Assembly (NCBI GenBank): GCA_963815925.1
Contig: CAWFIV010000007.1
Coordinates: 43,313 to 107,312 of the forward strand
Length of the DNA: 64,000 bases
Direction of reading: 5' to 3'
From: an uncultured Acidobacteriota bacterium
GTDB taxonomy: Bacteria; Acidobacteriota; Terriglobia; Terriglobales; Acidobacteriaceae
This document shows, piece after piece, positions 35,419 through 64,000 of the stretch. Position numbers and translations under genes: made by a program. A model generated the notes under the pieces. The model was given only the letters and a program-made list of their open reading frames with translations, was not told the origin of the DNA and did not search any database. Position 1 is the first letter of the stretch. Every line of letters begins with the position of its first letter.

Positions 35419-35445
35419 ACTGCGAACCATCTGAGAACTTGAGAA

Positions 35446-43074: not shown

Positions 43075-43080
43075 TCATGA

Positions 43081-44629
43081 TTAACGGAACAATTCAAGAC
43101 GTTTATGTACGGGTCTTACATCATCGACCCGTCCAGCCGGCTCACCATGATGGCAAGCGCGTCCTACAGCGACTTTCGAGGTGCCCAATACGCCGGGCGT
43201 TGGCATCGGGAACGGCTCCCGGGGGCGATACCTTGCGCTCGCCATGACACCCGGCAACTGTTCCGCTCCGGGCACTTTCAATTCCGCCAACAACAACGAA
43301 AATCAAAACGAGCAGAATTATTACACGCGTCCTGACTTACCAGAAATCCGCCGGCGATTTGGACTTTCAGATCTCCGCCTTTGGCCGCGAGAGCGAACAG
43401 CATTTCACGCCGGACCCGATCGGCGACCTCTACCTCAACGGCGAGGCCAGCGAGGTGCATCGCTACCTTTACTCCGCCGGCTTGCAAGCCGACGCCAGTT
43501 ATCAATTGGGCGACTACCATACCATCCGCGCCGGCGGATCAGTTCCTGGCCGAGGGCGACTCAAAATAATACCTCCACCACCGTCTTCAACCTGGACGCC
43601 AGCGGCAATCCGACCGACCCTGGCAAATATCACGGACAACCATCCCCTCTACGGTCTGTTTGCCGGGCTGTATTTGCAGGATGAATGGAAAATCTTCCCC
43701 ACGCTCACCCTCAATGTCGGCGCGCGCTTCGACGTTTTCTCTTCCTCCTTTGACGACGAAAATCAACTCAGCCCGCGCGCCAATCTCATCTATAAACCGT
43801 TCAAATCGACCACGCTGCACGCCGGTTACTCGCGTTACTTCACCCCGCCGCCCGTGGAGGACGTCGGCGGCGGCAGCCTGGCGAAATTCGCCGGCACCTC
43901 CGGCGCCCCGGCCACGTTTCAGGACGATCCGGTCAAAGCCGAGCGCGCCAACTATTACGACGCCGGCATCACCCAGACCATTCTTCCCGGCTGGAACATG
44001 GGCTTGGACGGTTACTACAAAACCGCCCAGCAACCAACTCGATGACGGGTTGTTCGGGCAGACGCTTATTCTCTCGGCCTTCAACTATGAAAAAGGCCGG
44101 GTCTATGGGCTTGGAATTCACGACCTCTTACGAGAACGAACGGCTTCAGCGCCTATGCCAACGCCGCTTATTCCGTCGCCCAGGGCGAAAATTGGGACTC
44201 GGCGCAATTCCTGTTTGATCCGGCGCGACATGGCCTACGTCCAGAATCATTGGATTTATCTGGACCACGACCAGGCTTATAGCGGCACGGCCGGCGTTTC
44301 TTATCGTTACAACGAGTCGCGCACGACCAGCACCATGGGTTACATGGACGTGGTTGCCGGCAGCGGATTGCGGCAGGACGCGACGGCTGCCGATCGGCGC
44401 AGCAACCCATCCCCAACGGCGCGTCCGTTCCGGACTATTACTCGCTCAACGTCGGCGTGCGAACAAACCTTCAAAGTGGCGCACAAGCAATATTTGAAAG
44501 CCCGACTCGATGTCGTCAACGTGACCGACAACACTTATGAGTTGCGCAGCGGATCGGGCGTGGGCGTCAATGCCGCCGCAATATGGCGAGCGCCGCGGGA
44601 TTTTTGGTTCGTTGAGTTACTCGTTCTAA
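43081..44629 (+). pseudogene. TonB-dependent receptor, 5'-truncated, with at least 7 frame changes
   Basis: Barrel segments lie in alternating frames: YGSYIIDPSSRLTMMASASYSDF / EVPNTPGVGIGNG...NENQNEQNYYT / LTYQKSAGDLDFQISAFGRESEQHF / TDNHPLYGLFAGLYLQDEWKIFPTLTLNVGARFD...HAGYSRYFTPPP / ...PRGIFGSLSYSF-stop (terminal Phe). Confidence 0.8.
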
Positions 44630-44702
44630 CATATTGACGGAAGCCGGGCATATCCGAAAAACTGTCTTATGGCCGCTGCCGCCTATCAATTAAAGTCCGA
44701 AC

Positions 44703-45377
44703 TTGGCCCGGGTTTGTCTGCCCGCGCCGGAGCGCGACGCCTATCGGCGGCTGGCCTGGATCAATTCCATCTGCTTCTTTTTCCTGATCGTCGGCGTGTC
44801 CGGCGCGCGCTCCCGGTTGCCTGTTCCGAACCGTCCCGCCGCCGATCGAACAGCCGGTGCCGATCATCATCCAGCCGCTGCCGCCGACGCCGCCGCCCCG
44901 ACGGAAGCAAAACAAATGGAGCCGCAAAACGAGGACCAAAAGCGAAATCGCGCCGCGAGTCGTGGTGGTGACGCCGGATTCCCCGGCCATCAATTTTTCC
45001 GTGCCGACCATCGGCAATGTCGTTGTTCCCAATGCCGTCGCCCGCGCCCCGCCGGTCGCGCCGCTCAAGGCCGACCGCGCCGGTTCACCACGAGCCGACA
45101 GACCATCGGCAGCACAGGCGAAGGCGGAGACCGCCCCCAGCCGCCCTACCCGGAGATGGCCCTCAAATTCGGCCAGCAAGGCACGGTCGTGTTGTTGTTG
45201 ACAGTCGATGACAGTCGGCCTGGTGCAGTCCATCGATCAAGGAAACTTCCGGCTCGCCCATTCTGGACCGAAGCGCCGTCGAATTCGTCAAACGCCATTG
45301 GATTGCCGCCGCCCATGAGCGGCGGCCATGTTTTTCAAGCCACCATTTCTACCAGCTCAATGAACCGATTAGCATGA
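44703..45377 (+). pseudogene. tonB: TonB-like energy transducer, frameshifted
   Basis: TM anchor YRRLAWINSICFFFLIVGV. Pro-rich spacer IIIQPLPPTPPP in another frame. C-terminal domain PPYPEMALKFGQQGTVVLLLTVDD back in the first frame. Confidence 0.7.
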
Positions 45378-45437
45378 AGATTAAGATTAAGATTAGGAGC
45401 GGAAACACTCTTCTTTTCCTAATCTTAATCTTAATCT
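45378..45437. repeat. 21-bp perfect hairpin built from tandem AAGATT hexamers
   Basis: agattaagattaagattagga (45378-45398) pairs with tcctaatcttaatcttaatct (45417-45437). 18-nt loop. Starts directly after the tonB stop. Confidence 0.8.
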
Positions 45438-45468
45438 AATCCTAATCTCCCCTCTCCATTTACACTTT

Positions 45469-46136
45469 ATGATGGCAAATATTGTTTTTGATTTTTTTCT
45501 CAAAGGCGGCCCGGTCATGGTGGCCGATCCTCATTTGCGCGCTGGTCGCCGTGGCCGTGGTGGGCGAGCGCTCGTTTTGGTGGCTGCGCGAAGGCCGCCG
45601 CCGCGACCCCAAGAAACTGGAGCAAATCCTGGCCGCGCTGGAAAACGGCGACATCCCCGCCGCCATCCAAATCGCCGAAGGCTCGCACGACCCGGTCATC
45701 CGCATGATTCACCGCGGCATTGAACCACGTCCACACCTCCATGCAAGGCGCGTTGCAATTGGCCGCGGGCATCGAATTGGAACGCGCCGGGCGGTTTCTG
45801 ACCGTCATGGACACGCTGGTCACGCTGGCGCCGCTGCTCGGCCTGCTGGGGACCGTCACCGGCTTGATGCGCGCCTTCCTCAGCGTCGGCAGCGCGGAAT
45901 TGTCGGTCGTCGCGGTCACCGGCGGCATCGGCGAGGCGTTGATCGCCACGGCCTGCGGCCTGGGCATCGCCATTTTTTCGCTCATCCCGTTCAATTATTT
46001 CACCGGCCGGCTGGCCCGCCTGCAATTTGAACTGGAAGCCGCGGCCACCAACGTCGAAATGATGGTCGCGCCAATGCAGTGCGGAAGCCGTCAAATTGGA
46101 CCAAGCGCCGTACCGGCTCCCGTCGAATCGGCCTGA
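45469..46136 (+). pseudogene. exbB: MotA/TolQ/ExbB-family proton channel, two frame changes
   Basis: MMANIVFDFFLKGGPVM | WPILICALVAVAVVGERSFWW... | ...LTVMDTLVTLAPLLGLLGTVTGLMRAF...GGIGEALIATACGLGIAIFSLIPFNYF. Shifts near 45520 and 45715. Confidence 0.8.
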
Positions 46137-46140
46137 GCAA

Positions 46141-46565
46141 ATGAAGCTGTCCTCTCCAGTCAAGCGCCGCCATTCGCGCATCGAGATCATTCCGTTGATC
46201 GACATCATGTTCTTTCTGCTGGCCTCCTTCATGATGGTCAGCCTGCAAATGGACCGCACCCAAAACATCAAGGTCAATCTGCCCGCCGCCAGCATGGCCC
46301 GCGCCGATTACAAGCCGGACATGATCAACATCGCCGTGGACAAGGCCGGCGCCGTCTGGCTGGAGAAAAAGGAAATCACCCTGCCGGAATTGGACCAGGT
46401 CCTGAGCAACCGCTTCCGCGTCGACACCAATCTGCCGGTCTATATCAGCGGCGACGCCGCCACGCTGCACGGCTCGATGGTGCGATGTGCTGGAGGCCGT
46501 GCGCCGCGCCGGCGTGCAGAAAGTGGCCTTCATGGTCGACGGGCGCGCACCAACCAGGCCAGCCC
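46141..46565 (+). pseudogene. exbD: ExbD/TolR-family protein, frame change near the 3' end
   Basis: MKLSSPVKRRHSRIEIIPLIDIMFFLLASFMMVSLQM...NLPVYISGDAATLHGSMV, then DVLEAVRRAGVQKVAFMV in another frame. Confidence 0.75.
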
Positions 46566-46995
46566 ATGAAAATCCGCTCCCCCATTGCCCGCAAGCGCAC
46601 CCGCCTGGAGATCATTCCGCTGATTGACATCATGTTTTTTCTCCTCGCCTCCTTCATGATGGTCAGCCTGCAAATGCAAAAAGTCCGCACGCTCAAAGCC
46701 AGCCTGCCCACCGCCACCCTGGCCACCTCCACCAAGAAACCCGACATCATCAACCTCAAAGTCGATCGCGACGGCCAGGTTCGAATTGGACAAGCAAACT
46801 GCTGTCCTTCCCGCGAACTTGCTCACCGTCCTGTCCAACCGCCATCAGCTCAACACCAACGTTCCCGTCTATCTCAGCGGCAGCCGCGACGCCACGCACG
46901 GCGCGATGATGTATGTGCTGGATTTCGTCAAACGCGCCGGCATCCAGCACGTGGCCGTCGCCATCAAGGCCGATCCATCCCGCCCGGCCGAATAA
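46566..46995 (+). pseudogene. exbD: second ExbD/TolR-family protein, one frame change (~46780)
   Basis: MKIRSPIARKRTRLEIIPLIDIMFFLLASFMMVSLQM...IINLKVDRDGQV | ...VPVYLSGSRDATHGAMMYVLDFVKRAGIQHVAVAIKADPSRPAE-stop. Confidence 0.75.
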
Positions 46996-46997
46996 CC

Positions 46998-47543
46998 ATG
47001 AAAAATTTTCAACAAAACCTGTTCATCGTCCTGGCCCTCGGCCTGTGCGGCACTGTGCGCCTGGCAATGGTACTTGCAGACCGTCCAGCTCAACACCATC
47101 GAGAGACTCGAACCAGATCATTTATCAACAATCCGCCGACATCCAGGGCTACACCAACTCCATCAACGCATGGACGCCGAAATCGCCGGACTGCAGACCG
47201 CATCACCGAGCTCAAGCAAACCGCCATGAGCAACGACCATGGCCATCTCACCGAGAAACGCGAAGTCGCCCGCCTGCAATCCGCCGGCGACATCATGAGC
47301 AACGAGATCGTCCAATACAAGGCGCGTCGACAAATCTTCTGGAAGCCAAACTCAAAGAAGCCTACGACGGCATAAAGAAGCAAAACGACGCCATCGCAAA
47401 ACTGGTCGCCGAGCGCGACGAATTCGTCAGGCAAATTCAACGACAGCGTCAAGGCGCGAAACGAACTGGTGGAGAAATACAACGACCTGGTCCAACAAAT
47501 GAAAAAACTCCAGGACGCCGAAAATTCCAAAGGGAGCAAATAA
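46998..47543 (+). pseudogene. membrane-anchored coiled-coil protein, several frame changes
   Basis: MKNFQQNLFIVLALGLC..., then heptad-like segments in three frames (IIYQQSADIQGYTNSINA / ITELKQTAMSNDH / LLEAKLKEAYDGIKKQNDAIAKLVAERDEFVRQ / ELVEKYNDLVQQMKKLQDAENSKGSK-stop). Confidence 0.5.
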
Positions 47544-47660
47544 CCCCTTCCGATGACCAATAACAGATTCCCAATGACCAATTCTCAATCGAGAAGTCAG
47601 AAATCCCAAGGTGAATTGCTTCGCCAACAAGACTTACCCAAGAAAGTGAAATGCACCTGA

Positions 47661-47697
47661 GCAACGGTTTTGCAACGTTTTGCGACGTTTACCGTTT
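47661..47697 (+). repeat. tandem ~10-nt direct repeats (GCRACGTTTT x3.5)
   Basis: gcaacggtttt gcaacgtttt gcgacgttt accgttt. Located 160 nt upstream of the histidine-kinase start. Confidence 0.6.
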
Positions 47698-47855
47698 GAT
47701 TTCCCTGTGTTCGGGCTGTAAACTGCCGTGTTGTCGGGTGTCAAACGAAGCGAGGTGTCATTGCCGAACAAACCGCATTCGCATTTTGGCCTGGTTACGC
47801 TGGCTCTCGGGCCAGCGGCGCGGTTTCTCGTCTCTGAAATGGTTCCATCTTCCCC

Positions 47856-49452
47856 ATGAAACAAATCCCGCCTTCCGACGACAGCCTCAGCAATGTCGGC
47901 AAAGAACGATTCCAGCTCATCGCCCGCGCCGGCAACGATGTCATTTGGGATTGGAATATCCAAAGCGGCGTCTCATGGCAGAGCCACACTCTCCGTCAGT
48001 TCGGCTACTCCGAAGCCACCCAGCCGGGCGAACGCCCTTGGCTTGATCACGCCCATCCGGACCACTTCCAACGCGTGCTCAAGGGCCTCGAAGATGTCCT
48101 CGCCGGCCAGACGCTGTATTGGTCGGACGAATACCCATTCCATCGCCGCGACGGCGCCGTTGTCGAAGTTTTCAATCGCGCTTGCGTGGTCCGCAATGCC
48201 GAAGGACGCGCCATCCGAATGGTCGGAGCGATGATCGATATAACCGATCGCAATAAAGCAAGGGAAACAATCAACGCGCAACGAGCAGACCACCAGAAGA
48301 TCGAAACCCAATTCCTGCGCGCCCAGAGGTTGGAGAGCATTGGCGCGCAGGTCGGGCGCATTGCTCACGACCTCAACAATGTCTTTTCGCCCATCCTGAT
48401 GGGCGTGCCGTTCTTGAGGGATATTGCCGGCGATCCTTCCAGCCGCAAAATCCTGGCCGACATGCGAATCCAGCGCCGAGCGTGGCGTCGCGGATTGTCA
48501 AAGAGTTTTTGACACTGGCTCTGCGGCGCCCGAAACCGAGCGCACCCGGCTCCGGCCCAATCAACTTATTCAGGAAACGGTCAATGTCCTCGGCGAGACT
48601 TTTCCCAAATCCATTCGGGTCAAGACCTCTTGCGATCCTGCGCGTCTGCGAGATCGAAGGCGACGCCATGGAACTTCACCAGGTCCTCCTCAATCTCTGT
48701 GTCAACGCGGGGGATGCGATGCCAGACGGCGGGGGCTTTGACCCTCTCTTCGCACAATGTCACTCTGCAAGAGCCGGTTTTCTGCGCCGGACTCTCCGGC
48801 CCGTCCGGTGAATACGTGCAAATCCAGGTCGCCGATACCGGCATTGGCATGTCCGAGGAACTGCAAACGAAAATATTCCAGCCTTACTTCACCACCAAGG
48901 AGCCCGGGCAAAGGCAGCGGGCCTGGGCCTCTCGACCATCGTGAGAATTCTCCAAAGCCACGGCGCCATGCTCGGCTTGGAAAGCGCCCCGGGACACGGC
49001 ACGGCCTTTTCCATTTATTTTCCCGCCAAACTCCGCCGCCCTCAGACCGATGCCGCTGCCCTCGCGCCCGCGCCGCCCGCCGGCAACCAGAGACTAGTCC
49101 TGCTTGTGGACGATGAGGAGGCGATTCGCGAAATGTGCCAGTTGATCCTGGAAAGCTCCGATTACCGCGTCTTGACCGCCGAAAACGGCGTCGAGGCGCT
49201 GTCGCTGACCGAACGCTACAAAGACGAAATCTCCGCCGCCATAGTGGATATGATGATGCCTGTGATGGACGGCGCGGCTGCGATTCGAGCCATGCCGCTG
49301 GTGCGCGCCGCAATTGAAGATCATCGCCACCAGCGGCCTTTCGCAAAAAGAACAATCCGCCGCCCTGGGTGATGCCGCGCCGGATCATCTTCCTCCAAAA
49401 GCCGTACACCGCGGACCAGTTGGTGGCCGCGCTGGCTGGCGTGCTCCGTTGA
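47856..49452 (+). pseudogene. hybrid PAS sensor histidine kinase / response regulator, at least 5 frame changes
   Basis: PAS (FQLIARAGNDVIWDWN...[10 protein letters not shown]). H-box [13 protein letters not shown]. ATPase N/G boxes ([51 protein letters not shown] implied). Receiver (LVLLVDDEEAIREM...IVDMMMPVMDG...KIIATSG). Segments sit in alternating frames. Confidence 0.8.
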
Positions 49453-49494
49453 CGGCCAATTCCAAACACGCGCTCCGGCGTCACATTCCGATCG

Positions 49495-50899
49495 TCAGTG
49501 CCGCCTCATTTTCCCGTTCCTCGTTCTCACCCCGCCGCTTCCGGCCCCGCTGAACCTGCACCAGGTTGACCGGCAGCCAGGCCTCCCGGAAGGAATCCAG
49601 GTAATCCAGCGACGCCAGCAATCCCGGCGTCGACCGTGTCCAGTTCGCCGGCGCGCCACACCGCATGACGCAGGCATTCCTGATGCGCCATGACCTTTTC
49701 GGCAATGTCCTCGTCGCACAGAAGATTCCCCAGCGTCGGAGTCGCCCGCAACGCCGCCGCAATGTCATCGAGCAGCGGCGTCCTTACTGCGCAGCCCCCT
49801 CTCCAGATGCGGACAACTTCAGCCGGGTTGAAATCAAACCCATGCCGCGCCGAGCCTGCGGCCAGCAGCGCCAAACCCTCCGCGTAAGCAATGATCATCG
49901 CGGCGTGACAGCGCCCCGCGCAATTCATCCAGCACGCTCTCTGCGTCCTCTCCAAAACGCCCTGCGGGATGCCGGAACGGTGTCATAATCAACGATCGCT
50001 GCCGTTCCCGCGCTGAAAAACACTGCGTGCCCAGCGCCGCGTCGATTGTCGGCGTCCGCACCCCCAACTCCCGCGCGCATTGCGAAATCCGCCGGGCCGC
50101 CGCGTCGTTCTTGAGAGCGTTAAGCTTCCCCTTGATCTGGCCCCGCTCCATCCCTTCATCAACGGGATTGAAAACATGCCCGGAAACTTCGGCCAGGTAA
50201 CCGTTGAGAACACCGACGTTCAAGGCGCCGGAGGCATCGCGCAAATTCCTCGCCCCCAAACGCCAGCGTCCGTTGCATCAACTCAAACGTTTCAAACACC
50301 AGTTCCATCAACCCGTATTCGATGCCGGAATGTGCCATGCGCGCAAAGCACGCGGCTGCAGCGGAATCAAAATAGCCGACAGCCGGTTCGCCGTTGACGT
50401 TGGCTGCCAGCGCCTCCAGTATTGGGCGCATCCGCGCGCAGACTTCGCGCCGTCCGCCCGCCATGATGATGATCCCGTCTGCGCCGCCGCATCGCCCCCG
50501 GCGATTCCCAGGCTCATGAACTCGACGGATCGTTCCGACAGCTTCCGGGCGCGACGCTCCGCGTCCTTGAAGTACGAATCTCCAGCGTCAATTATAAGGT
50601 CTCGCGGGGCCAGGTGCGGCAGCAACTCATTAACCATTCCGTCCGTCTGCGCTGCGGTTTCTCCAAAAACAAAAATCGTCCGCGGCCGACTCACCAATCC
50701 GGCCAGTTCAGAAAGGGATCGTGCCTGAAGAAATGGTCCGCCTGCCAGGCCCTGCGGCAAGTTCGCGGGTTGGCGGAGGAGCGCAGTTCCCACGTCGCCA
50801 CCTGAAATAGATGGCTGGAAATATTCTGCGCGACGCTGACTCCACTGCCGAACAAGCCGGCCACGCCAACATCACACTTGCCTGAATCCGAATCCGACA
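49495..50899 (-). pseudogene. gnd: 6-phosphogluconate dehydrogenase (decarboxylating), at least 5 frame changes
   Basis: CDVGVAGLFGSGVSVAQNISSH / IIDAGDSYFKDAERRARKLSERSVEFMSLGIAGG / MAHSGIEYGLMELVFETFELM / GYLAEVSGHVFNPVD / MIIAYAEGLALL...VVRIWRGGC / LDYLDSFREAWLPVNLVQ, on successive minus-strand frames. Confidence 0.8.
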
Positions 50900-51210
50900 T
50901 TTGACCGTCAATCTGCCCAAACATCCAACGACTTTTTGAAATCACAAATTAATAAGAAGCCATTGGCGTTGGTTTTTCCCGATACTCCCGCCGATGCGGC
51001 GGCCGAGTCAACTATTTCGAGCGAAAAGTTATTCACACTCCCGTGCATTTTTGTTGACGCAAGAATAACAGTCGCGCCCTCTCACTCCCACCTGAATCGA
51101 CTATCAGGACATCCCCCACTACCCTCTCTTGTAGCCTACAGATTCCACCCACAACCTGTAGTGCATTTCTCATCCAAGTTGCTTCTACTGGCAGTGACAT
51201 AATCCTTCCG

Positions 51211-51273
51211 TCTCCTGTCTTCTGACCTCTGACCTCTGTCCTCTGACTTCTGTCTTCTGACTTCTGACTTCTG
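51211..51273 (+). repeat. nine tandem heptanucleotides (consensus WCYTCTG)
   Basis: tctcctg tcttctg acctctg acctctg tcctctg acttctg tcttctg acttctg acttctg. No inverted partner seen nearby. Located 305 nt upstream of the repeat-protein start. Confidence 0.85.
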
Positions 51274-51578
51274 TCAATTTGCCCCTGCGAAATGGCTTGC
51301 CAATCCGGGCGGTGGGAAGATCATCACGAAAACAGCCACAAACAATTCATTTACGCCATAAGCAACAAACCAAATGGGAAATCCCGGTTTAGATCAGAGC
51401 CAGTTTCCCCAATTGCGGGAGGTTTGTGCTAAATCAAAAATCATCAACATCAACCGGGGCCACAATGCGCCGTTTTGGCGCGGGCTGGCTAAAATCGGCT
51501 GTGTGTCCAAGCGAAGGCAGTTCTCCCCGCAACTTGGTTTCATTTCCCGTTCAACTCTCAATAACTAAACGAATCATT

Positions 51579-53983
51579 ATGAAAAATCAAATTAAACAAG
51601 CCCTCACCTCGCTGATCCTGTTATCAGCGCTCAACTCAACCGTTTTCGCCCAGGGCACGGCGTTCACATATCAGGGACAGCTCCAGAACAACGGGAGTCC
51701 GGCCAGTGGCACCTACAACCTAACCTTCACACTATTCAACACCAACACCAGTGGTGCGCCTATCGTGGAACCGGTGACCAACAATGCTGTCGTTGTCGCC
51801 AACGGTCAGTTCACGGTGCTGATTGATTTTGGCCCAGGCGTGTTTACGGGCCGACCAACTGGTTGCAGATTGGAGTGGAAACGAACGGCGACAGCAGTTT
51901 CACCACGCTAACGCCGCGTCAGGAATTGACCCCCACGCCGTACGCCATTTACGCGGAAAGCGCCAACACTTTAAGCGGCACGTTGTCGGCCTCTGAATTG
52001 ACCAGCATCGGCAATACCACTGATATAAACGCTCAAAACTTCTTCATTGGTTTTGCGGGCAATTCGACGACCGGTGGTGCGGCTAACACGGCCGCCGGTT
52101 ATATGGCTTTTAACGAGAACACGGGCGGCTCCAACAACACCGCCTATGGCTTCCAAGCGCTTGTCGACAACACGAGTGGCTCGGGCAACACCGGCATTGG
52201 CTTGACGGCCCTTGCCGCCAACAGCAGTGGAATCCAAAATACAGCCGTTGGCGAGGAGGCAATGTATATGGGCGGCAGCAGCATGGGCGGCAGGCTGCCA
52301 TGACAATTCCGCCTTCGGTGTCCTCGCGCTCGGCAACAACCAGGGCTCATTCAACTTGGCCAGTGGCGTGTATGCGCTTTACGGCAACGGCCTGGGCAGC
52401 TACAACACGGCCAACGGCGCATTTGCGCTTTACAGCAACGGCGGCACCGGGAACGGCAACTACAACACGGCCAATGGCTATGAGGCGCTTTACTCCGGCG
52501 GCACCGGGGGCAGCAACGTGGCCGACGGCGCCTTGGCGCTTTACAGCAGCGTGACCGGCGGCAACAACATCGCGCTGGGCCATCAGGCCGGTTACTATAT
52601 CACCTCGGGCAGTTCCAACATTGACATCGGCAACCCGGGTCTGCCCACGGACACCAACCTCATCCGCATTGGCACCGGCCAGACGCAGACGTTCATTGCC
52701 GGCGTCATCAACGGCAACGGCGCGGGTCTGACCAATCTCAACGTGATGAATTTCAGCGGCACCCTTCCACTAACGCAATTGCCGGTCGCGGTGGTGACCA
52801 ACACTGAATCGAATGTCTCGCTGGGCAGTTTGACGCTGGGCAGTAGTTTGGTTTTGTCGGCACCCGCCGCCGTTTATTCCGGCGGCAACAGCCTTTTAAT
52901 TGCCGACAATGACTTTGACTTCTACGCCGGTCCGTTGGCCGGTAATTTTACCACCACTGGTCCCGCTAACACGGGCCTTGGCTTTGGCGCTCTTTCGATG
53001 AACGGCGGCGGCGCATTCAACGCGGCCGTGGGCGCCGGTGCTTTGGGAAAAAACTCCGTTGGAAACAACAACACAGCCTTAGGTTATGAGGCGCTGTACA
53101 ACAACTCAACCGGCTCAAATAATGTGGCCAACGGCTACTGGGCGCTTTTGGCAAACACGAGCGGCTACAACAACACGGCCAATGGCTATGAGGCGCTTTA
53201 CGACAACTCGACCGGCTATCTCAACACGGCCGTGGGCTATAATGCGCTTAACAACAACACGAGCGGCTACGTCAACACGGCCGTGGGTCATGACGCCTTG
53301 AAATTGAATCAAATTGGCAATCAAAACGTGGCCGTGGGCGATTTGGCTATCTCGGCCGAGAACGTCTGGCAACAACAACACGGCTGTGGGCGATTCTGCA
53401 GGCTCCAGCATTACCTCCGGCAGCAACAACATTTACATTGGCAATTTGGGAAATTCCAGCCGAGAGCGGCGTCATTCGCATCGGCACGCCAGGGACGCAG
53501 ACCCAGACCTACATGGCCGGGCACATTGAAGTCTGACCTGCAATACCATCACCATTACCGGAGGCTCCGACCTGGCCGAGCCGTTTGCCATCTCCACGGC
53601 GGACCAGACGGTTTCCGAGGGCGCGGTGGTGGTGATTGACGAGGCGAATCCGGGCCAGTTGAAATTGACCGACCAGCCTTACGACACCCGCGTGGCCGGC
53701 GTGGTCAGCGGCGCCAACGGCATTCATCCCGGCATCCAGATGCAGCAGCAGGGCTTGCTCGAAGGCGGCAAGAATGTGGCGCTCACCGGCCGCGTTTATG
53801 TTCAGGCCGACACCTCCAACGGGGCCATCAAACCGGGCGACTTGCTGACCACTTCCAGCACTCCGGGCCGAAGCGATGAAAGTCACCGATCACGTCCGCG
53901 CGCAGGGCGCGATTCTGGGCAAAGCCATGACCGAGTTAACGGCAGGCAAGGGCATGGTGCTGGTGCTGGTCACGTTGCAATAA
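51579..53983 (+). pseudogene. large secreted repeat protein (YadA-head-like NTAxG..AL repeats) with conserved C-terminal domain, at least 5 frame changes
   Basis: Signal MKNQIKQALTSLILLSALNSTVFAQG. Dozens of NTA.G..AL..NT.G..N units. C-terminus ITITGGSDLAEPF...VVVIDEANPGQLKLTDQPYDTRVAGVVSGA...GRVYVQADTSNGAIKPGDLLTTSSTPG...GKGMVLVLVTLQ-stop. Confidence 0.65.
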
Positions 53984-54011
53984 CCGCCTGGTCGTTCATG
54001 AAAGAAACCTG

Positions 54012-55737: not shown

Positions 55738-55753
55738 AGGGACAATTACAGTG

Positions 55754-57713
55754 ATGATCGCGATGAGAATGACCCTGGCCGTGGCACTGGTCAATGGCGC
55801 ATGCTGGTTTGCGGTTGTTGCTCGCGCTCAGGATAACGATGCTTTCGGTAACAGCAACATCGGCGAGCGTCTGTTCTTGGAGACACGGTTCGCGCAATTT
55901 TTCTTCACCAATTCGGGTGGCAACGCGAATTTCGCCCTTGACCAACGGCGATCCGGTGATGAACACCACGGTCACCATTAACGGGCCGTTGCCGGGGCCG
56001 TTTGCCGGCCAATCCATGAACTGCCGCGCCTGCCATATGGTTGAAGAACAGGAAAACACCGGCAATCGCACTTATTGTGATTTCGCCCCGCGCAGTCCGA
56101 TCCCGGCCAGGGCGATGGACTGACGCACGACGCACCGCAATGCCATTGATCTGGTCAATTCCCTGCTGCCTCATTCCACCCCGTTGTTTCTCCACTACGA
56201 CGGGCAGTTCGCCACGCCCCAGGACTTGATCATTTCCACCTTGACGGGGCGGAATTTCGGCTGGGAGCCGACGGAATATGCCACGGCCATATCCCAAATT
56301 GTGAATGTCATTCGGAACGACAACGGCAGCGACGGCCTGGCGCAACAATATGGCGGGTGGTCTTATGCGCAGACATTTGCAGGGCTCGAGTGCAAATTCG
56401 AGAGCCAATACTAGATATCAATTCACGAATCGTCTCTTTGACGTGTCGGTGACGAACCCCGCCGACCCCAATTATGTGAGTGACGAGCCTGATTATGCGG
56501 GATGTTGCCGCTTTGATCCAGGCCTACTTGGAAACCCTGGTTTTCTCGCAGGACGCCACCGGACAGTTTAACGGTTCGCCTTATGACGTTTTTTTGATCA
56601 AGAATGGCCTGCCCCGGTCGCCAGCGGCAAATGAAACGCCGCTGCAATACAGCCAGCGTCTGCTTCGAGCTTGTTGACAACCTGCCCAATCCCCAATATG
56701 TGACCGATCCGGCTGACGGTCATTTTGACCAACCCACGATCAACTCTATCAATTTGGCCCGACGGAGCTGGCGGGGTTGAAGATTTTTTTGACGACAGCG
56801 CAATCTGAGCGGCCAGAACTCAGGGCGCTCAGACTGGCAATTGTGTGGCTTGCCACAGCCCGCCGGCTTTCACCGATTTTCTTTTCCACAACACCGGGGC
56901 GGCGCAGGAGGAATACGACTCCATTCATGGCGCGGGCGTCATTCATGGCGCTGGCCATACCAGGCTTTAGCGAGCGCCAGACCAACTACAACGCCTATCT
57001 GCCGGCGACGACGAATCATCCCAATGCCCTGGGCATGTTTATCACGCCGCCCAGCCTGGCGCAGCCGGGACAGGTTGACCTGGGATTATGGAATGTTTAT
57101 GCCAACCCCGACATGCCATGCGCCCCAAGCCAGCCTGCAAGCGATTATGCCGCAACTCATGGGCATCCAGCTGACATCGCCGCAATTCTGCGGCACGGCG
57201 ACGACTGGGAACAATCTCGTTTTTGACGGGCACAAATGGCACGCCGGGCTGGTCATATTATGTTCTGGCCTCGACGAATCTGATGCTGCCGCAAACCAAC
57301 TGGAGCGTCATTATCCACCAACACCTTTGACAGCCAGGGGAATTTCAACTTCACCAACGACACGCTGGCCAACGGCGCAGGAGTTTTATCAGTTGTCGTT
57401 GGCACGGCCCACCGCCCGCCGTGGCCTTGCCGCTCATGATCGCCCTGTTCAAGACCCCGCAATCTCCGTGACCTTGGAAGCTCCCAACCTTACTTGCATA
57501 CTGGCCGGATGAACACGCATTGAGGAGGTCATCGCTTTTTATCAAAACTTTTCCAGCCTAGGCCAGCGCCGGCGACCGTCAGAAACGCCGACCCCCAATT
57601 GAGCGGGATATTCATTGGACAGTGCCGCCGTCGCCCCGCTGGCGGCCTTCCTGAGTTCGCTGAACGAGGAGGATTACTTCGATATTCCGTGCCCGTGCCG
57701 AACTACACCATGA
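55754..57713 (+). pseudogene. dihaem cytochrome c peroxidase-like protein, many frame changes
   Basis: Signal peptide present. First haem motif NCRACH (GQSMNCRACHMV) and second NCVACH (TGNCVACHSPPAFTDFLFHNTG). C-terminal ...LFKTP...LEEVIAFYQNF... in other frames. Confidence 0.55.
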
Positions 57714-58020
57714 ACACTTATTCTTGGCGGTCGATTTTTATTTCGCAGTTTTCAGCGTCCGCCGTGATCCGATCTCCCGCTTTGACCTCGCCGTTTAACA
57801 GTTTCGCCGCCCGTCGGCGCGTCAATGTAAGGCTCGCCCTGTTGCCCTCTGCGCTCCACATTGACCCCCGCCCGGCTCCGGGAGTTTTGCGTTTAGGATT
57901 CGGCTTGTGGAGAATTGCTTGCGACAAGAATGGCCATCCGGGTGACAATGCCATTAAGGCATTGCATGCGGTCAGCGCGCGCTTTAACGTGGCCTTTAGA
58001 CGGTGCGGTTTACTTTACTT

Positions 58021-59453
58021 ATGAAACTTGATGCGGTGCTTAGTGTCATTGCGGCGGCCGCCGCGTTCGCGGCCGATGGCGCGACTCCAGCCTGGCCAGG
58101 GTTTCGCGGGCCGAACAGTTCGGGCGTCGGCGACGGGGGCGCGCCGCCCATCAACATCAGTCCCACCAACTCGGTTTTGTGGAAGGTCCAGGTGCCTTGG
58201 TCGCCATCTTCGCCGTGCATCTGGGACGACCAGATTTTTCTGACCACCTTTAGCGACAACGAACTCCAAACCCGATGTTATCGCCGCCAGGATGGCACGC
58301 TGGCCTGGTCTCGCGGATTGAAGCCGGACAAAGTCGAATCCTTTCACAGCACTGAGAGCAGCCCCGCCGTCCCCACACCGGCGACCGACGGCCGGCGGGT
58401 GGTCAGTTATTTCGGCTCTTTCGGGCTGGTTTGCTACGACCGCAAGGGCGCGGAACTGTGGCGGCATCCGATGCCGCTGGCCTTTAGCATGGGCGGATAC
58501 GGCACCGCATCGTCCCCGCTTATCGCGGGAGACCTCGTCGTCATCAACCGCGACCAGAACGACGTCTCGTCCCTGCTGGCAGTGGACTTGGGCACGGGCA
58601 AGACAGCCTGGGAAACGCCGCGGCCCGACGCGCATGGCAGCTTTGGCACGCCGATCCTCTGGCGGAACAACGGCGTTGACGAGGTCATCACCCCTGGGTC
58701 CCTGCGCCTCAAGGGCTACGCGCTCAAGACGGGTGTGGAAGACTGGTTGGTTCAGGGAACAGCCTCGTTTGCCTGCACCACGCCGGTGGTCGGGCGACGG
58801 ACTGCTCTTCTTCGCGGCCTGGTCCAACGGCAAGGCCGATGCTCCCTGGCCCACGTGGGAAAAGTTTCTGGAGGGCTATGACAAGGACAAACGACGGTGT
58901 GATATCAGCCTCGACAAAATCGATCCCGTCATGCGCGACTACATGCGCGGCCTTGACCTGAACCGCGATGGAAAGATCGACAAAGCCGAATGGGATGAGA
59001 TTCAGGCGAATGCCGCCAAAGGGGAAAATATCCTGGTGGCGGTCAACCCGGGAGGCCGTGGGGACATCACCCAGAGTCATGTGGCCTGGAAGTTTACCCG
59101 CGGGCTGCCCTACGTCTCTTCGCCGCTTTTCTACGATGGCCGGATTTACCTCGTCAAGACCGGTGGCATGTTCTCAGTTGGATGCCAAGACCGGCAAACC
59201 TTATTACACCCAGGAGCGCCTGGATGCGCCGGGGGATTACTATTCCTCGCCCGTGGCTGCCGGCGGGCGGATTTACGTCGCTTCACTGTCCGGCAAACTC
59301 AGCGTGGTCAAGGCCGGCGGTGACAAGCCTGAAATTCTTCACCAGGCGGAGTTTGGCGAGCGCATTCTCGCCACGCCGGCGCTGGTCGGGGACAATCTCT
59401 ATCTCCGCACCCAGTCCACGCTCTATGCCTTCGGTCCCCAAACCCTCCATTAG
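58021..59453 (+). pseudogene. PQQ-like beta-propeller repeat protein with EF-hand insert, two frame changes
   Basis: Signal MKLDAVLSVIAAAAAFAA. WPGFRGPNSSG, repeated ...G...W blades. DLNRDGKIDKAEWDE loop. Shifts near 58790 and 59170. Confidence 0.7.
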
Positions 59454-59804
59454 CCGCCTGAACTGCCAATAACCTCAGCCGAACCGAGTGATTGCCTTCG
59501 GGCTTCCTTTGCCAAAACGGCGGCGCGCATTTTATCAGCGAATGGAAAGCGCGAAGCGTCTTGGACTGCGGTGGTCCTCTACCGCTCCTTCCCAGAAGAG
59601 TATTGAGGCTCACGACAAGCCTTCACCCGTCGCTCATCGTGCCATCAAGCCAAAATGCGCGTTTTGTTGTTGCCGCCGAGTGGATTATCGATAATGTTGC
59701 TTGACCCGAAACAATATGAACGATGCGGCTTCAGGCAGAGAGTGCCGCGGTACAGACCAATTTCGCAAGGCCGTAATCCATCTGCAAACCCACCTGAACG
59801 CTGC

Positions 59805-60222
59805 ATGAATATTGAGAATCTTAGTGACGGGAAAATCCTCTACTTCCCGACAATCGAATTCCAAAGTGACGCCTGGCTGAAATCAGCATTGTGTGTGTGG
59901 GAGAGAATTTATCGAATCGTTCCAGCATCTTACGATCCGCTGGATTCTGATGAAACCAAAGAGGCTATTAATGCCGGTCTTATCGAGTCCGTGAAATTGA
60001 GCAGTGGCGATTTGACAAAAACCGCACTGACTTTCAAACATTCATCGGCAAGGCGGCTGAATTTCCGGCAGCCCTGCAAGGCCACGACAATATCCGACTT
60101 CATGAGGATAAGGTGGATGACCGAATCCTTCCGATCCTCAAAAGCTTGGCCAAAAAGATTGATCCCAGTGGATGGCTTTCTGTTTCCGAACCTGTCGCTA
60201 ACGCGTACATGCTTTTCCTAAG
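59805..60222 (+). pseudogene. hypothetical protein (DUF6236-like by recollection), frameshifted and cut at the IS end
   Basis: MNIENLSDGKILYFPTIEFQSDAWLKSALCVWERIYRIVPASY... One frame change near 60040. The reading frame ends at the left IS inverted repeat. Confidence 0.4.
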
Positions 60223-60336
60223 TAGAGCCAGTCCCAAATGAACTTTCCGAGAGGGATTTTCGTTTTGGTGCGCCCCATAACCGGCTGACTTTGCCCAAAA
60301 GCGGCAAAATCTGCGATTATAAGTCGTCCCGGAGGT

Positions 60337-60552
60337 TCAGGTTTTGCTAAAGCGGTGTTTGGCGGCGGGCGGCGGGGCTTGGAGGCGAACCAAGCGCAGT
60401 TCGCTCCGGTCGAGCAACTCCCATTGGACTTGATCGCCCGGGTTGAGGCCGATGGCGGCGGCCAAGGCCAGGGGAAAACTCACGTAGAGCCGGGGCTGCT
60501 GTCCCTGCGAGCGAATGGCTTGGATTTTCAACGGATAGGTGGTCGGCTGCAT
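60337..60552 (-). CDS. AbrB/MazE/SpoVT-type small DNA-binding protein inside the IS
   Basis: MQPTTYPLKIQAIRSQGQQPRLYVSFPLALAAAIGLNPGDQVQWELLDRSELRLVRL is a swapped-hairpin-type pattern (..P..LA.A.GL.PGD.V.W). Confidence 0.6.
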   Translation of the reverse strand: MQPTTYPLKIQAIRSQGQQPRLYVSFPLALAAAIGLNPGDQVQWELLDRSELRLVRLQAPPPAAKHRFSKT

Positions 60553-60592
60553 TTTTTTTGATCTTTCTTTCAAATAATGTTTGACTTTTATA

Positions 60593-60612
60593 AGCTAGAT
60601 TATAATCTAGCT
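60593..60612. promoter_or_regulatory. perfect 20-bp palindrome between the divergent AbrB-like and transposase genes (candidate operator/promoter)
   Basis: agctagattataatctagct contains tataat. ttgact lies 14 nt upstream. The transposase ATG (60615) follows 2 nt after the palindrome. Confidence 0.45.
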
Positions 60613-60614
60613 CC

Positions 60615-62256
60615 ATGACGAACGCCACGATTATCCCCTTTCAGGTGCCGCTGCCGCAAGCCCTGCCCACCATCGAGGGCAACGTCGATTACCGCCAGTT
60701 CCGCGACAACTTCCTGCACATCGATCAACTCCTGCTGGCAGAGCGGCTTGGAAACCCAACTCCTGCAGAGCCGATCTCCAGCGCTGGCTGGCCCAGCGCA
60801 CAAAAGTCAGCCCCCGCGCCCAACAAAACCACCAACTCCACAGCCGCCGCGCTTTGCGCTGCAACATCGCCCGCCAGTTGCTCCGGGAGGACTATCGCGG
60901 TCTTCGCCGCCCGGCTGGCCGACAGCCCGCTGCTCCAATACTTCTGCGGCCTCGGCGAGGTGGGCTGCGTCAAGGTGCCCAGCAAAAGCACGCTCCAACG
61001 TTATGACGTGTGGTGGAAGGAAACGGAGGTGCGCCACGTCATCCATCAACTCTTGAACCTGGGCGCCACCGCCCCGCAGCAACTCCATCTGCCCGCAAGC
61101 GGTCGATTTGGAAAGCGCCTTTCTGGACACCACCTGCCTGGAGGCCAACATCCACTACCCGGTCGATTGGGTCTTGTTGCGCGACGCCACCCGCACCCTG
61201 ATGAAAGCGGTGCGCCTGATCCGCGACCAGGGCCTCAAACACCGGATGGAAGAGCCGGAGAGTTTTTATCACGCGCATCAACACCCTTTGCATCCAAATG
61301 ACCCATGCCGGCAACAAGACCGACAGCCAGCGCCAGCGCAAGAAAACTCTCCGCCAAATGGACAGCCTGGTGGGCGTCGTGCGCCAGCATGCCCGGCGCT
61401 ACCGCGCTTTGCTGGATGAGCAATGGCAGAAAACCGACTGGACCCGGCCCCAGGCCGAACAAGTGCTCCAGCGCATGGACCAGGTGCTGGAGCAATTGCC
61501 CAAGGCCCGCCAACAGGCGCGCCAGCGGATTCTGCAGGAACAACCGGTGGCCAATGCAGACAAAATCTTGAGCCTTTACGAGCCGGACATCCACGTCATC
61601 GTGCGCAAGAAGGCCGGGGCCGAGGTGGAGTTTGGCAACACGTTTTTCCTGGCCGAAAACCCCCAGGGCCTGACTGCTCGATTGGGAACTCTTTCAAGAG
61701 CAGGCCCCGCCCGATAACCAATTGCTGCCGCGCAGCGTGGGCCGGATGGAGCAAGTTTACGGCGCGCGACTCAAGGCGGCCACCGCCGACCGTGGATTTG
61801 ACAGCTACAGCAACCGGGTCGGCCTGGCCGACGAGGGCATTTACAACGGGGTTTGCCCGCGTTCTCCCGACGGCGCTGCAAGAGCGCGGACACTCTTGGA
61901 AATTCAAGCGCTTACAACGACGGCGGGCCCAGACGGAAGGGCGCATCGCGATTGTCAAGAATGTGTTTTTGGGCGGGCGCATGCGCGGCAAAGGGTTTGC
62001 GCACCGCCAACTGACCGTCACTTGGACCGTCCTGGCGCACAACCTTTGGGTGCTTGGCCAGGTTGCAACGCTCGGCCGATGGCCGAACCCCAAGCCCAGG
62101 CGGCCTGAACGCCGCCCACGAAACTCCTGGAGCACTCATCCGGGAGGCGCTGCGTATGCCGAGTGGCCGGAAATAGGCCAAACTCCTAGTCTTGACATCA
62201 GTAAAGTGATTTTTTTTGAACTTTCCCAGCGAATCACTGTCAATTGTCTAGATTGA
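60615..62256 (+). pseudogene. DDE transposase (IS4/IS5 superfamily), at least 6 frame changes
   Basis: FLDTTCLEANIHYPVDWVLLRDA (first D), ADRGFDSYSN (second D), RRRAQTEGRIAIVKNVF...LAHNLWVL (E region). Also ILSLYEPDIHVIVRKKAGAEVEFGN. Segments are spread over all three frames. Confidence 0.75.
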
Positions 62257-62310
62257 AAACGCCCCGCGCCCCAAAATAATTCCGAATGCGACCTTTTGGG
62301 ACTGGCTCTA

Positions 62311-62372
62311 TGTAGAGGCTATCGTCATCATTCCACACGACAAATCTCAAATACTGGTCTTCAGTCTTTCAT
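62311..62372 (-). pseudogene. hicB: 5' remnant of a hicB antitoxin gene
   Basis: The ATG overlaps the hicA stop (ATGA). After one frame correction it reads MK(T)EDQYLRFVVWNDDDSLY, which I recall as a HicB N-terminus type. It then runs directly into the IS right end. Confidence 0.4.
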
Positions 62373-62569
62373 TTGGCCGCCTCACGAATCGCGTTGCGCA
62401 CTTGTTTCTCCTGGTAATGGCGAGCGTCATCACCATTGCCGCCGCTTAATATCACCGAACCGGGAATTCGCGGGTGGCGAAATTTACGATGCGACCCTTT
62501 GCCTCCCGGCACAAGCATAAACCCCGACTTGGTCAGATCGGATACCAATTGGCGAATTTTTCGCGGCAT
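62369..62569 (-). CDS. hicA: HicA-family mRNA interferase toxin
   Basis: 66 aa. MPRKIRQLVSDLTKSGFMLVPGGKGSHRKFRHP is the YcfA/HicA signature (GSH.K). One of the few intact ORFs in this half. Confidence 0.85.
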   Translation of the reverse strand: MPRKIRQLVSDLTKSGFMLVPGGKGSHRKFRHPRIPGSVILSGGNGDDARHYQEKQVRNAIREAAK

Positions 62570-62705
62570 CTGTCTTCAATGCAATACCACCGTGACCGCA
62601 GCCCGTCAACTGGTGCGCGGAATCGTGTAATCACGGCGAACCGCGTTCAAGCGGATTGACAACGCGCCGCGTTACGCTTATGTATTTGAGACTGAACACA
62701 AATCT

Positions 62706-63256
62706 ATGAATACATTTCACACCTGCGTCCGCTGGATTTTCGCGGCGACTTTCGCGATCACCGCAATGCCACTGCTGGCCGCAGTTTCCCTCCGGGAAGG
62801 CGATAACGCTCCGCTGTTCTCCGGCCACGACCAGGATGGCGCCACGGTTCAACCTCAAATCGAAGATCGGCAGAAGAGATCGTGCTGCTCTATTTCTATC
62901 CCAAGGACGATACCATGGGCTGCACCGCCGAGGCTTGCGGGCTGCGCGACAAAATGGTTGAACTCAAAAAGCGCGACGTCGATGTTGTCGGCGTCAGTTT
63001 CGATAATGCCGAAAGCCATCAAACGATTCGTTTTCAATACAACCTGAACTTTCCACTGCTTGCCGACACCAGCGGCGATATTGCGGATGCATATGGGGTT
63101 CGCTTGGGACCGGATAAGCACATGGCGCGGCGCGTGAGCTTTTTGATCGGGTTGAGCGGCCGGATCGTGCATATCACCGATTCGCCGGATCCGGCGGTTC
63201 ACTTGCGCGAGATGCAGGAGGCCATCGCGCAAATGGAGGGAAAGCCCGCGCACTGA
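62706..63256 (+). pseudogene. bcp: secreted peroxiredoxin (Bcp/AhpC-TSA family), one frame change
   Basis: Signal peptide, LREGDNAPLFSGHDQDGATV | VLLYFYPKDDTMGCTAEACGLRD (peroxidatic Cys context), VVGVSFDNAESH. Shift near 62860. Confidence 0.75.
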
Positions 63257-63319
63257 ATGATCTTCTTGCCCCTTGTTGAACGCGTCCAGCACCAAGCCAC
63301 TCCGGAATAGCCGGGCGGG

Positions 63320-63914
63320 TCAGCAAAAATCCGCCAGGCCGGCGAGGTGCGAGCGCAACAACTGTCGCGCACGAGAAATCCTGCCTTCCACGGCCTTGAC
63401 GGAGCAGCCCGAGATGGCGGCGATTTCCGCATGGGAATGCCGTTCGTATTCGGAGAGGACAATGGCGGTGCGCAAATCCTCCGGCAGTCGGGCGACAGCG
63501 CGGCGCACGGCATCGGCGCGCTCCGCGTGCTGCATTTGTTCGGCCGGGCCGGGATTGTCGATCGGCCAGCGCATCGCCCAGGGTTCCCCCGGTGGACTCA
63601 TTTTCGGCCTCGAGGGCAACTTGCGGGTGCCGGCCGCGCCAGCGAAACCGGTCGCGCGCGAGATTCGTGGCGATGGTGTATAGCCAGGTGCTGAATCGGG
63701 CGGCGGGATCAAACCTGGCGCGGTTTTGATAGACCCGCACGAAGGTTTCCTGGGCGAGATCGGCGGCATCAGCCTCGCTCTGGAGCTGGCGGATGAGGTA
63801 ATGGAACACTTTCTCCCCGTGGCGTTCCATCAGGGAATTGAGCGCGGCGTCATGGCCCTCCACCAGCCGCGCCATGTCTGCCGCGTCCTGGGTGTCAGTG
63901 GTGTCCGGGGTCAT
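63320..63914 (-). pseudogene. ECF (sigma-70 family group 4) sigma factor, one frame change
   Basis: Region 2 DAADLAQETFVRVYQNRARFDPAARFSTWLYTIATNLARD. Region 4 LPEDLRTAIVLSEYERHSHAEIAAISGCSVKAVEGRISRAR in another frame. Shift near 63580. Confidence 0.8.
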
Positions 63915-64000
63915 GGGCGGACTGGGCAGGACGTGTCAGGCATGTTTTGCATGGCGCCGAGGTTTTTTCGGCAACCCAGGCGAGATAGCGTTTTCCTTCG

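Follow-up and report, generated by a model that had tools for sequence, protein, structure and literature searches.

The window, the whole 64,000-nt stretch of DNA that was analysed, consists of a clean acidobacterial left part and, from position 43046 to its end, a block of about 21 kb that carries predicted genes for TonB-dependent uptake, a sensor kinase, 6-phosphogluconate dehydrogenase (gnd) and repeat proteins, all of which are found intact in other assemblies. Every gene in 43046-64000 is readable only with frame changes and, judged from sequence comparison, each is split by private single-base insertions or deletions at about 3-9 per kb. The features across the join between the two parts and along the broken block are given below, where frameshifts are counted against orthologues in L082, a 51-kb contig from a different assembly.

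42544..43044, minus strand: GH13 alpha-amylase-family gene, of which the C-terminal 167 codons are present; final feature of the clean left part
43045..43046, no strand: chimeric assembly join, a base-precise meeting of two unrelated sequences in one deposited contig
43046..44626, plus strand: TonB-dependent receptor, truncated by the join and missing its first ~215 residues; 16 frameshifts
44669..45361, plus strand: TonB, with a fragment of Pfam TonB_C; 9 frameshifts; intact in L082 (229 aa)
45469..46141, plus strand: ExbB; 4 frameshifts (45520, 45725, 46080, 46102); intact in L082 (227 aa, with MotA_ExbB)
46141-46561 and 46566-46992, plus strand: two ExbD proteins (Pfam ExbD); 1 and 2 frameshifts; both intact in L082 (141 aa each)
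46998..47540, plus strand: coiled-coil-like protein of 180 aa; 6 frameshifts; orthologues in L082, L083 and L088 are intact
47856..49449, plus strand: PAS sensor histidine kinase with receiver domain; 8 frameshifts; 528 aa in L082
49484..51048, minus strand: 6-phosphogluconate dehydrogenase, gnd; 7 frameshifts; 520 aa in relatives
51579..53980, plus strand: 800-aa secreted repeat protein; 6 frameshifts; orthologue intact in L082 and L084
54030..55734, plus strand: kelch-repeat protein, 568 aa; 3 frameshifts
55754..57710, plus strand: 655-aa protein, earlier called peroxidase-like, in which no Pfam domain was found; 18 frameshifts and the sole in-frame stop, at 56412
58021..59450, plus strand: PQQ-like beta-propeller protein, 476 aa; 2 frameshifts
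59655..60238, plus strand: start of a gene for a 407-aa protein (~192 codons); 1 frameshift
60218..62315, plus strand: IS element of ~2.1 kb with 21-nt inverted repeats at its ends
60615-62073, plus strand: DDE transposase within the IS element; at least 5 frame changes
62706..63253, plus strand: bcp/peroxiredoxin; one frame change at ~62875
63323..63914, minus strand: ECF-type sigma factor split between two frames, one for region 2 (63564-63914) and another for region 4 (63323-63562)

Two genes are truncated where the parts meet, the GH13 gene on the left and the receptor gene on the right. In tblastn, the GH13 fragment aligns with orthologues of 630 aa over their residues 464-630, at 80-86% identity; relatives of this protein are ~630 aa long, with the Pfam Alpha-amylase domain at residues 63-465 in the L060 orthologue, and the catalytic domain is absent here, the gene having been cut by the join. 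The receptor orthologue in L082 is intact at 739 aa, the alignment of the window to it starts at residue ~216, and the Pfam match (TonB_dep_Rec_b-barrel) is partial. Further along, the annotated fragment of gnd is the 141-aa product P0121, while its frame-joined reading is 94% identical to the intact protein P0001; the names attached to gnd matches (Baltobacteraceae, Saccharimonadales, Verrucomicrobiae) are inconsistent as a guide to the taxonomy of the right part. When its two frames are joined, bcp covers positions 2-123 of the 124 in the AhpC-TSA profile. The remainder of the 407-aa gene was sought after the IS element and is absent from the window.

In a frameshift-aware protein-to-DNA alignment against the intact L082 orthologues, 83 frameshifts were located gene by gene across 13 genes over 17.2 kb from 43046 onward (60 of type +1, 5 of +2 and 18 of -1), with a single in-frame stop over the same distance; the IS transposase, the sigma factor and bcp together add at least seven more frame changes. 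The positions come from this custom alignment, as plain tblastn HSPs ran through the shifts and blurred them. A first-pass annotation had read the block as frame-broken in nearly every gene, with few in-frame stops and a hop between frames every 150-400 bp, and each of these observations holds, the mean spacing being ~1 per 230 bp. Its minimum counts are exceeded for the receptor (at least seven claimed), the kinase and gnd (at least five each), its two exbB shifts, placed near 45520 and 45715, recur at 45520 and 45725, and the breaks that it saw in tonB, both exbD, the repeat, kelch-like, peroxidase-like and PQQ proteins, bcp and the sigma factor were all recovered. Two of its statements stand in part: the transposase is broken, with a count here of at least five in place of at least six, and the breakage, which it began at 43081, has its true onset 35 bases earlier, at 43046. 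Once the frames are corrected, the protein sequences share 71-99% identity with those of L082.

The left part behaves differently. Long stop-to-stop ORFs run throughout 1-42.2 kb (maximum 1573 aa), whereas in ~43-64 kb the longest reach 200-477 aa and Pfam domains are partial only. A frame tracker based on codon usage, with the left part as its training set, counted 0 same-strand frame changes at a distance of 12 nt or less across the left 43 kb, against 17 across the right 21 kb (1 and 22 at 30 nt or less), and the median coding segment was 820 nt on the left and 234 nt on the right. When the frameshift-aware aligner was run on the left 43 kb as a control, no frameshift was called in any genuine long orthologue, although shadow ORFs of relatives gave 13 spurious calls over 28.8 kb. 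A Logan contig of independent origin agrees with the left part at 3924 of 3924 positions. A suspicious spot at 34888-35472 turned out to be a gene-poor stretch adjoining an intact gene.

The boundary between the two parts, which the first-pass annotation had overlooked, is a chimeric assembly join at 43045/43046, where frameshift density rises from 0 to about 8 per kb. DNA homology of L022, L051, L058, L060 and L066 to the left part stops at 43044/43045, and synteny with relatives (80 Acidobacteriaceae/Sulfotelmatobacter loci; 40+ relatives) extends only as far as ~43.04 kb. Beyond it the independent sequences diverge: the left relatives continue from ...gccg with TGCAGTCC... into the amylase-family gene, and the right side is entered from ...ggcgt with GGAGAATCC... 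by L082, by L083 and by a loose end of run X17, which carry on the receptor gene. Tetranucleotide correlation is 0.78-0.81 for right versus left, as against 0.93 for left versus left and 0.95 for right versus L082, and sample distribution changes in the same way, with identical contigs in X13 for the left side only and in X1 and X2 for the right side only. The join is spanned in none of the indexed public runs. At the breakpoint there is essentially no mobile-element end, no repeat or shared sequence of more than a few bases was seen, and the short conserved elements on the left side of the join yielded no tRNA or other RNA genes. The right-hand DNA has been shown to come from a different genome than the left. 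A concatenation of separate records was considered and rejected: left-part proteins and the right-part product P0121 each lie on a contig of 109,232 nt (the same nucleotide total, given without a record name), which is present in ENA and NCBI. Since both sides stand on one deposited contig, the join is one of assembly, and the sharp start of the breakage follows from it.

The genes of the right part are whole elsewhere. L082 aligns to 43046-60229 in one HSP and carries 13 of 13 genes as single ORFs, and gnd is intact in five further assemblies. The window is a mosaic relative to L082, at ~85% identity in 43.0-47.5 and 56-59.5 kb and ~99% in 47.5-55.7 and 59.5-60.2 kb. Within 47.5-55.7 kb, where six assemblies were compared, all 35 indels are of 1 nt and private to the window (for example at 48465, 48490, 48522, 48536, 50753, 50766 and 50781), and for nearly all of them each reference that covers the site disagrees (5/5 or 6/6). 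Four soil metagenomes of short reads (X1-X4) lack, at 100% of depth, the twelve indels listed for 48.4-50.3 kb, and none of the nine bases inserted in the kinase at 48465-49294 is present in the six assemblies or these runs. Together these ten independent datasets sample a population 98-99% identical to the window. A second assembly of the locus with a Flye-style name, L088 ('contig_157841'), has gnd in at least three pieces and the kinase in two, by non-homopolymer indels at sites mostly unlike those of the window.

The substitutions tell of genes under selection. Codon position 3 takes 53-57% of them and roughly one in two is synonymous, whether the segment is near-identical or 85% identical, and likewise among window-private substitutions, and from this bias it follows that the genes evolved under purifying selection. 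The comparison of substitution load with orthologues that had been proposed earlier thus gave a third-position bias, and not the even spread expected of decay. Window-private indels stand to private substitutions as 35:116.

Taken together, the 21 kb from 43046 can be regarded, with a probability of roughly 93%, as an error-laden stretch of a chimeric metagenome contig and not as a set of decayed genes; the broken genes are real in the deposited sequence and almost certainly not in the organism, whose own copies would be intact and selected. The right part was probably built from very few noisy long reads, so that consensus polishing would have been unable to remove the indels, and a single read of chimeric origin, or a strain of low abundance joined in error, may have been its source. 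The ratio of insertions to deletions is about 3:1, and none of 26 insertions makes a run of three or more bases, where 4.9 would be expected at random (P~0.003); deletions likewise lie outside homopolymer runs. The suggested check for indels in homopolymers is therefore negative, a homopolymer origin is rejected, and the classic Nanopore/HiFi homopolymer signature is not seen. The error profiles of Nanopore and HiFi reads do not match an insertion excess combined with avoidance of homopolymers. A long-read origin of the window's record is no more than circumstantial, suggested by relatives that are Nanopore MAGs, by Flye-style contig names in related records, by the like defect in L088, and by a related MAG catalogue that is Nanopore only and was assembled by metaFlye with one Medaka round (PMC12313526). 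The earlier attribution to uncorrected long-read errors is accordingly upheld as to error, by the private indels, the selection and the 83:1 ratio of frameshifts to stops, and is circumstantial as to read type.

Gene-fragmenting indel artefacts in long-read assemblies are a class described in two published reports (PMC12007338; PMC11017572). The window resembles under-polished Nanopore or PacBio CLR assemblies in its dense single-base indels, short ORFs and few nonsense codons, in the absence of its lesions from short-read data of the same population, and in that L088 has breaks of the same kind, mostly at other sites; it differs from them in its insertion excess, in showing no homopolymer enrichment, and in having errors limited to one part while the other is error-free. 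With chimeric metagenome contigs it shares a base-precise join, each side of which runs on differently in all other data, a truncated gene to the left and to the right of it, and a change in composition and sample distribution, but its breakpoint is unlike theirs in having no repeat or shared sequence beyond a few bases. Genuine mass pseudogenisation is exemplified by Mycobacterium leprae and by recently host-restricted symbionts. There, too, many adjacent genes are unreadable without frame changes; here, as opposed to those cases, the lesions are private to a single assembly, the marks of selection are preserved, hardly any stops occur and the breakage sets in at an assembly join.

How the errors arose admits of another account, in which coverage was not thin and at least two co-occurring strains, 85-99% identical, were merged, leaving consensus indels where they differ. 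This is possible, if doubtful. Frameshift density along the right part is uneven (8.5, 3.0, 9.2 and 1.4 per kb) and partly follows divergence from L082, peaking in two of the divergent segments of the mosaic, a variation that a simple uniform-coverage model does not explain. Nonetheless, 3 indels per kb remain in the near-identical segments, no more than 2 frameshifts occur in the PQQ gene despite its divergence (84% aa identity), and substitutions in the divergent segments look like clean third-position divergence with no jumble. It is also conceivable, though unlikely, that the indels are errors while the join is biological, as a real rearrangement or foreign DNA insertion in a poorly covered strain. 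The IS element in the right part makes the region mobile-element-associated, and gene content from the amylase gene to a 686-aa gene is already unlike that of relatives; yet two genes are cut mid-domain with essentially no mobile-element end, the jump in error rate falls on the very base of the join, composition and sample distribution change there, and no independent dataset spans it.

The alternative raised in the first-pass annotation, very recent mass pseudogenisation, is very improbable; it would need a lineage in which single-base indels had just inactivated ~17 neighbouring genes, gnd and exbBD among them. The frameshifts do stand in the public record and in gene calls such as P0121, and a handful of substitutions in the divergent segments create stops relative to L082. 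Against this, the lesions occur in one assembly while ten datasets keep the frames intact, substitutions remain third-position biased beside the 35:116 ratio, and one stop accompanies 83 frameshifts, in a breakage that begins exactly at the chimeric join. Neutral decay in bacteria should yield far more substitutions, evenly spread, and natural 1-bp indels are biased towards slippage, whereas no indel here lies in a homopolymer run of three or more. Slighter still is the chance that the right part is real DNA of a rare lineage, or relic extracellular DNA, in which an unusual indel-prone process has lately struck an entire block of housekeeping-type genes with non-slippage single-base insertions, and which was joined to acidobacterial sequence by illegitimate recombination. 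Programmed recoding, by ribosomal frameshifting or transcriptional slippage, has nothing in its favour beyond the need for frame changes in reading and has a negligible likelihood; genes carry 1-18 shifts each, in both directions and with no common context or motif, and it is refuted by orthologues that are ordinary, intact single ORFs.

The reading as an error-laden chimeric contig bears chiefly on data quality, as a public MAG contig of 109 kb appears to be chimeric between genomes, with a right part at about raw-read accuracy. Gene calls from it place spurious truncated families in protein databases, for example the 141-aa 'gnd' fragment, and pseudogene counts, completeness and contamination estimates, and pangenome or HGT inference would be distorted if the contig were used. 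The abrupt onset of frameshifts at a junction offers a cheap, reference-free flag of chimeric long-read contigs. The frame breakage is not a biological feature, and it has no biological importance, since the population has these genes in ordinary, intact form.

The frame changes that the first-pass annotation had described in the right part of the window were confirmed throughout, and their sharp onset, which had gone unnoticed, lies at a chimeric assembly join, 43045|43046. The first 42 kb are covered by long stop-to-stop ORFs (up to 1573 aa), and past ~43 kb the longest such ORFs reach 200-477 aa, with Pfam matches to partial domains (TonB_dep_Rec_b-barrel, TonB_C, ExbD, PAS, Kelch, PQQ_2, DDE transposase and Sigma70_r2). 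A homology-free frame tracker, based on codon usage and trained on the left part, gave 35 coding segments on the left (median 820 nt) and 50 on the right (median 234 nt), with 17 same-strand frame changes no more than 12 nt apart in the right 21 kb versus none in the left 43 kb. Frameshift-aware protein-to-DNA alignment with homologues, as had been proposed, was run with the proteins of L082, a 51-kb contig from another assembly, and located the indels gene by gene. In this alignment 13 genes carry 83 frameshifts (60 of +1, 18 of -1 and 5 of +2) and a single in-frame stop, at 56412, in keeping with the scarcity of stops reported earlier; the two shifts claimed for ExbB, at 45520 and ~45715, were recovered at 45520 and 45725. 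The frame-joined window proteins are 71-99% identical to their L082 orthologues.

Frameshifts per gene in the window, and length of the single ORF in L082 (the first four lines are uptake genes)
Receptor: 16 frameshifts; 739 aa
TonB: 9 frameshifts; 229 aa
ExbB: 4 frameshifts; 227 aa
ExbD, two genes: 1 and 2 frameshifts; 141 and 141 aa
180-aa protein: 6 frameshifts; 180 aa
PAS-kinase-receiver protein (kinase): 8 frameshifts; 528 aa
gnd: 7 frameshifts; 520 aa
Repeat protein: 6 frameshifts; 800 aa
Kelch protein: 3 frameshifts; 568 aa
655-aa protein: 18 frameshifts; 655 aa
PQQ propeller: 2 frameshifts; 476 aa
407-aa protein: 1 frameshift; 407 aa

Past the synteny with L082, bcp switches frame at ~62875 (its joined reading covers AhpC-TSA profile positions 2-123 of 124), regions 2 (63564-63914) and 4 (63323-63562) of an ECF sigma factor sit in separate frames, and a full reading of the IS transposase takes at least five frame changes. 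In the left part, genuine long orthologues (65-89% identity) used as a control gave no frameshifts, and 3924 of 3924 bases are identical to an independent Logan contig. Spurious calls arose in a control at 34750-35670, a ~0.9-kb gene-poor stretch in an otherwise densely coding left part, where the adjoining gene (33854-34744, minus strand) is intact.

Features near the join and at the right end
40106-42166: gene for a 686-aa protein
42167-42543: spacer between this gene and the amylase-family remnant
42353-42440: ~85-nt element conserved at the DNA level
42432-42515: 25-28 codons matching only the C-terminal end of relatives' proteins of ~290-370 aa (75-88%)
42544-43044, minus strand: just residues 464-630 of a 630-aa GH13 alpha-amylase-family protein
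60218-62315: IS element (~2.1 kb), with 21-nt inverted repeats at 60218-60238 and 62295-62315

The 686-aa protein is encoded at 80 loci from Acidobacteriaceae/Ca. Sulfotelmatobacter MAGs, whose synteny with the window extends from 32.3 kb to 43.04-43.09 kb at most and never beyond. DNA homology on the left stops at 43044/43045, within an amylase-family gene that runs on in relatives, and the L082 alignment begins at 43046, 644 nt into the receptor gene, so that the window receptor lacks ~215 N-terminal residues. Across the breakpoint the left relatives read ...gccg|TGCAGTCC..., and L082, L083 (a further locus of the same block) and a loose contig end in sequencing run X17 read ...ggcgt|GGAGAATCC...; the two are joined in the window only, and a search of the indexed runs found no join-spanning sequence. 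The first 40 bases past the join already hold three 1-base indels. The spacer measures ~380 nt in the window versus 3-9 kb in relatives, had no match among the tRNA and Rfam families searched, and may have been shortened by a deletion specific to the lineage, within the clean left part.

Tetranucleotide correlation is 0.93 between the halves of the left part, 0.91-0.94 between the left part and acidobacterial relatives, and 0.95 between the right part and L082, as against 0.78-0.81 between the right and left parts. The left part is held by public runs X13-X16 and the right part by others, X1-X12; identical contigs in X13 occur only left of ~42.1 kb, and those in X1 and X2 only from ~47.3 kb on. 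Judged by composition and distribution, the two sides appear to be different genomes. Concatenation of separate records was rejected as the origin of the join: in NCBI and ENA, the records of the window's own 141-aa gnd fragment and of three proteins from the left part each give a contig of 109,232 nt, and by this shared length the join is internal to one deposited contig.

Whole versions of the broken genes occur in other assemblies. The frame-joined gnd query retrieved an intact 520-aa 6-phosphogluconate dehydrogenase, P0001 (94% identical). Six contigs, each of a different NCBI assembly, encode precisely this protein, and one of them, L082, contains the whole block with every gene as a single ORF. 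L082 matches the window in one blastn HSP (43046-60229), with identity of ~99% at 47.5-55.7 kb and about 99-100% at 59.5-60.2 kb, and of ~85% at 43.0-47.5 kb and 56-59.5 kb, a mosaic that could reflect either strain recombination or a mixed-strain consensus. L088, another locus of the block, is 98.6% identical to L082 even in stretches where the window reaches only 85%.

Private indels were counted in the near-identical stretch (47.5-55.7 kb), where alignment to L082 is unambiguous. All 35 are of 1 nt, of which 26 add a base to the window and 9 remove one (~3:1), and at almost every site all the references that cover it disagree with the window (5/5 or 6/6). Of the added bases, the 12 recorded at 48.4-50.3 kb are all absent, at the same coordinates, from 100% of the depth in four short-read soil metagenomes of another study (X1-X4). 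L088 (ENA ERZ25039509, contig_157841, a Flye-style name) is also frameshifted, gnd being split into three or more pieces (101, 175 and 120 aa) and the kinase into two (410 and 133 aa); the gene for the 180-aa protein is intact in it, as are ExbB and the two ExbD genes. Its nine non-homopolymer indel events relative to L082 lie at sites unlike those of the window, save one spot near L082 10295. Two assemblies broken at different sites, with ten other datasets unbroken, have the look of assembly-specific noise. The shared spot, 50753-50781 in the gnd N-terminal region, is the sole place where both carry indels relative to L082; P0001 and P0122, another intact gnd protein, also differ there, and the N-terminal extension of the 520-aa gnd is probably of low conservation and truly variable at this spot. 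The location of indels in homopolymers, which the first-pass annotation had raised, did not hold: none of the 26 insertions makes a run of three or more bases, where 4.9 would be expected under random insertion (P~0.003), and no deletion in the near-identical stretch falls inside a run.

Substitutions relative to L082 fall at third-codon positions in 53-57% of cases and about half are synonymous, in near-identical and divergent segments alike. The 116 window-private substitutions keep this bias (62, 36 and 17 at positions 3, 1 and 2), and the right part accordingly derives from a genuine, distinct strain with maintained coding frames, on which 35 frame-breaking indels per 8 kb are superimposed. 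Roughly estimated from the mix of codon positions, noise could account for no more than about one in three private substitutions, and total error in the near-identical segment would then be near 1%, an inferred rather than a measured value.

At the right end, synteny with L082 stops at 60229, within the left inverted repeat of the IS element, the 407-aa gene is interrupted, its last ~215 codons being absent from the whole window, and related IS copies in run X1 have ~40x depth versus ~6x for the flanks, so that either a genuine rearrangement or a further mis-join could lie at this repeat.

Uncorrected error, which the earlier reading had preferred to pseudogenisation, is supported by the private indels, the selection signatures and the intact orthologues. 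Real pseudogenisation of the right-part genes is very unlikely, as the lesions occur in a single assembly, lack slippage context, begin exactly at the assembly join, and comprise 83 frameshifts against one stop, with private indels to private substitutions at 35:116 and selection signatures intact. Programmed recoding is excluded by orthologues that are single ORFs and by the 1-18 shifts per gene, in both directions. Strain collapse is a possible alternative artefact route, to which the 85%/99% identity mosaic and the higher error density in two of the divergent segments point, but as a sole cause it is opposed by the divergent PQQ gene, with two shifts only. The account based on uncorrected error has an established part, in which the join is chimeric, the single-base indels are private, the orthologues are intact and selection was purifying. 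To this it adds the proposal that very few noisy long reads underlie the right part, so that polishing would have been unable to correct it; this could have come about through a contig end extended by a chimeric read or through the mis-joining of a strain of low abundance. The broken right part is no biological feature of the organism, and together with the join it is of use as a data-quality flag on the public record.
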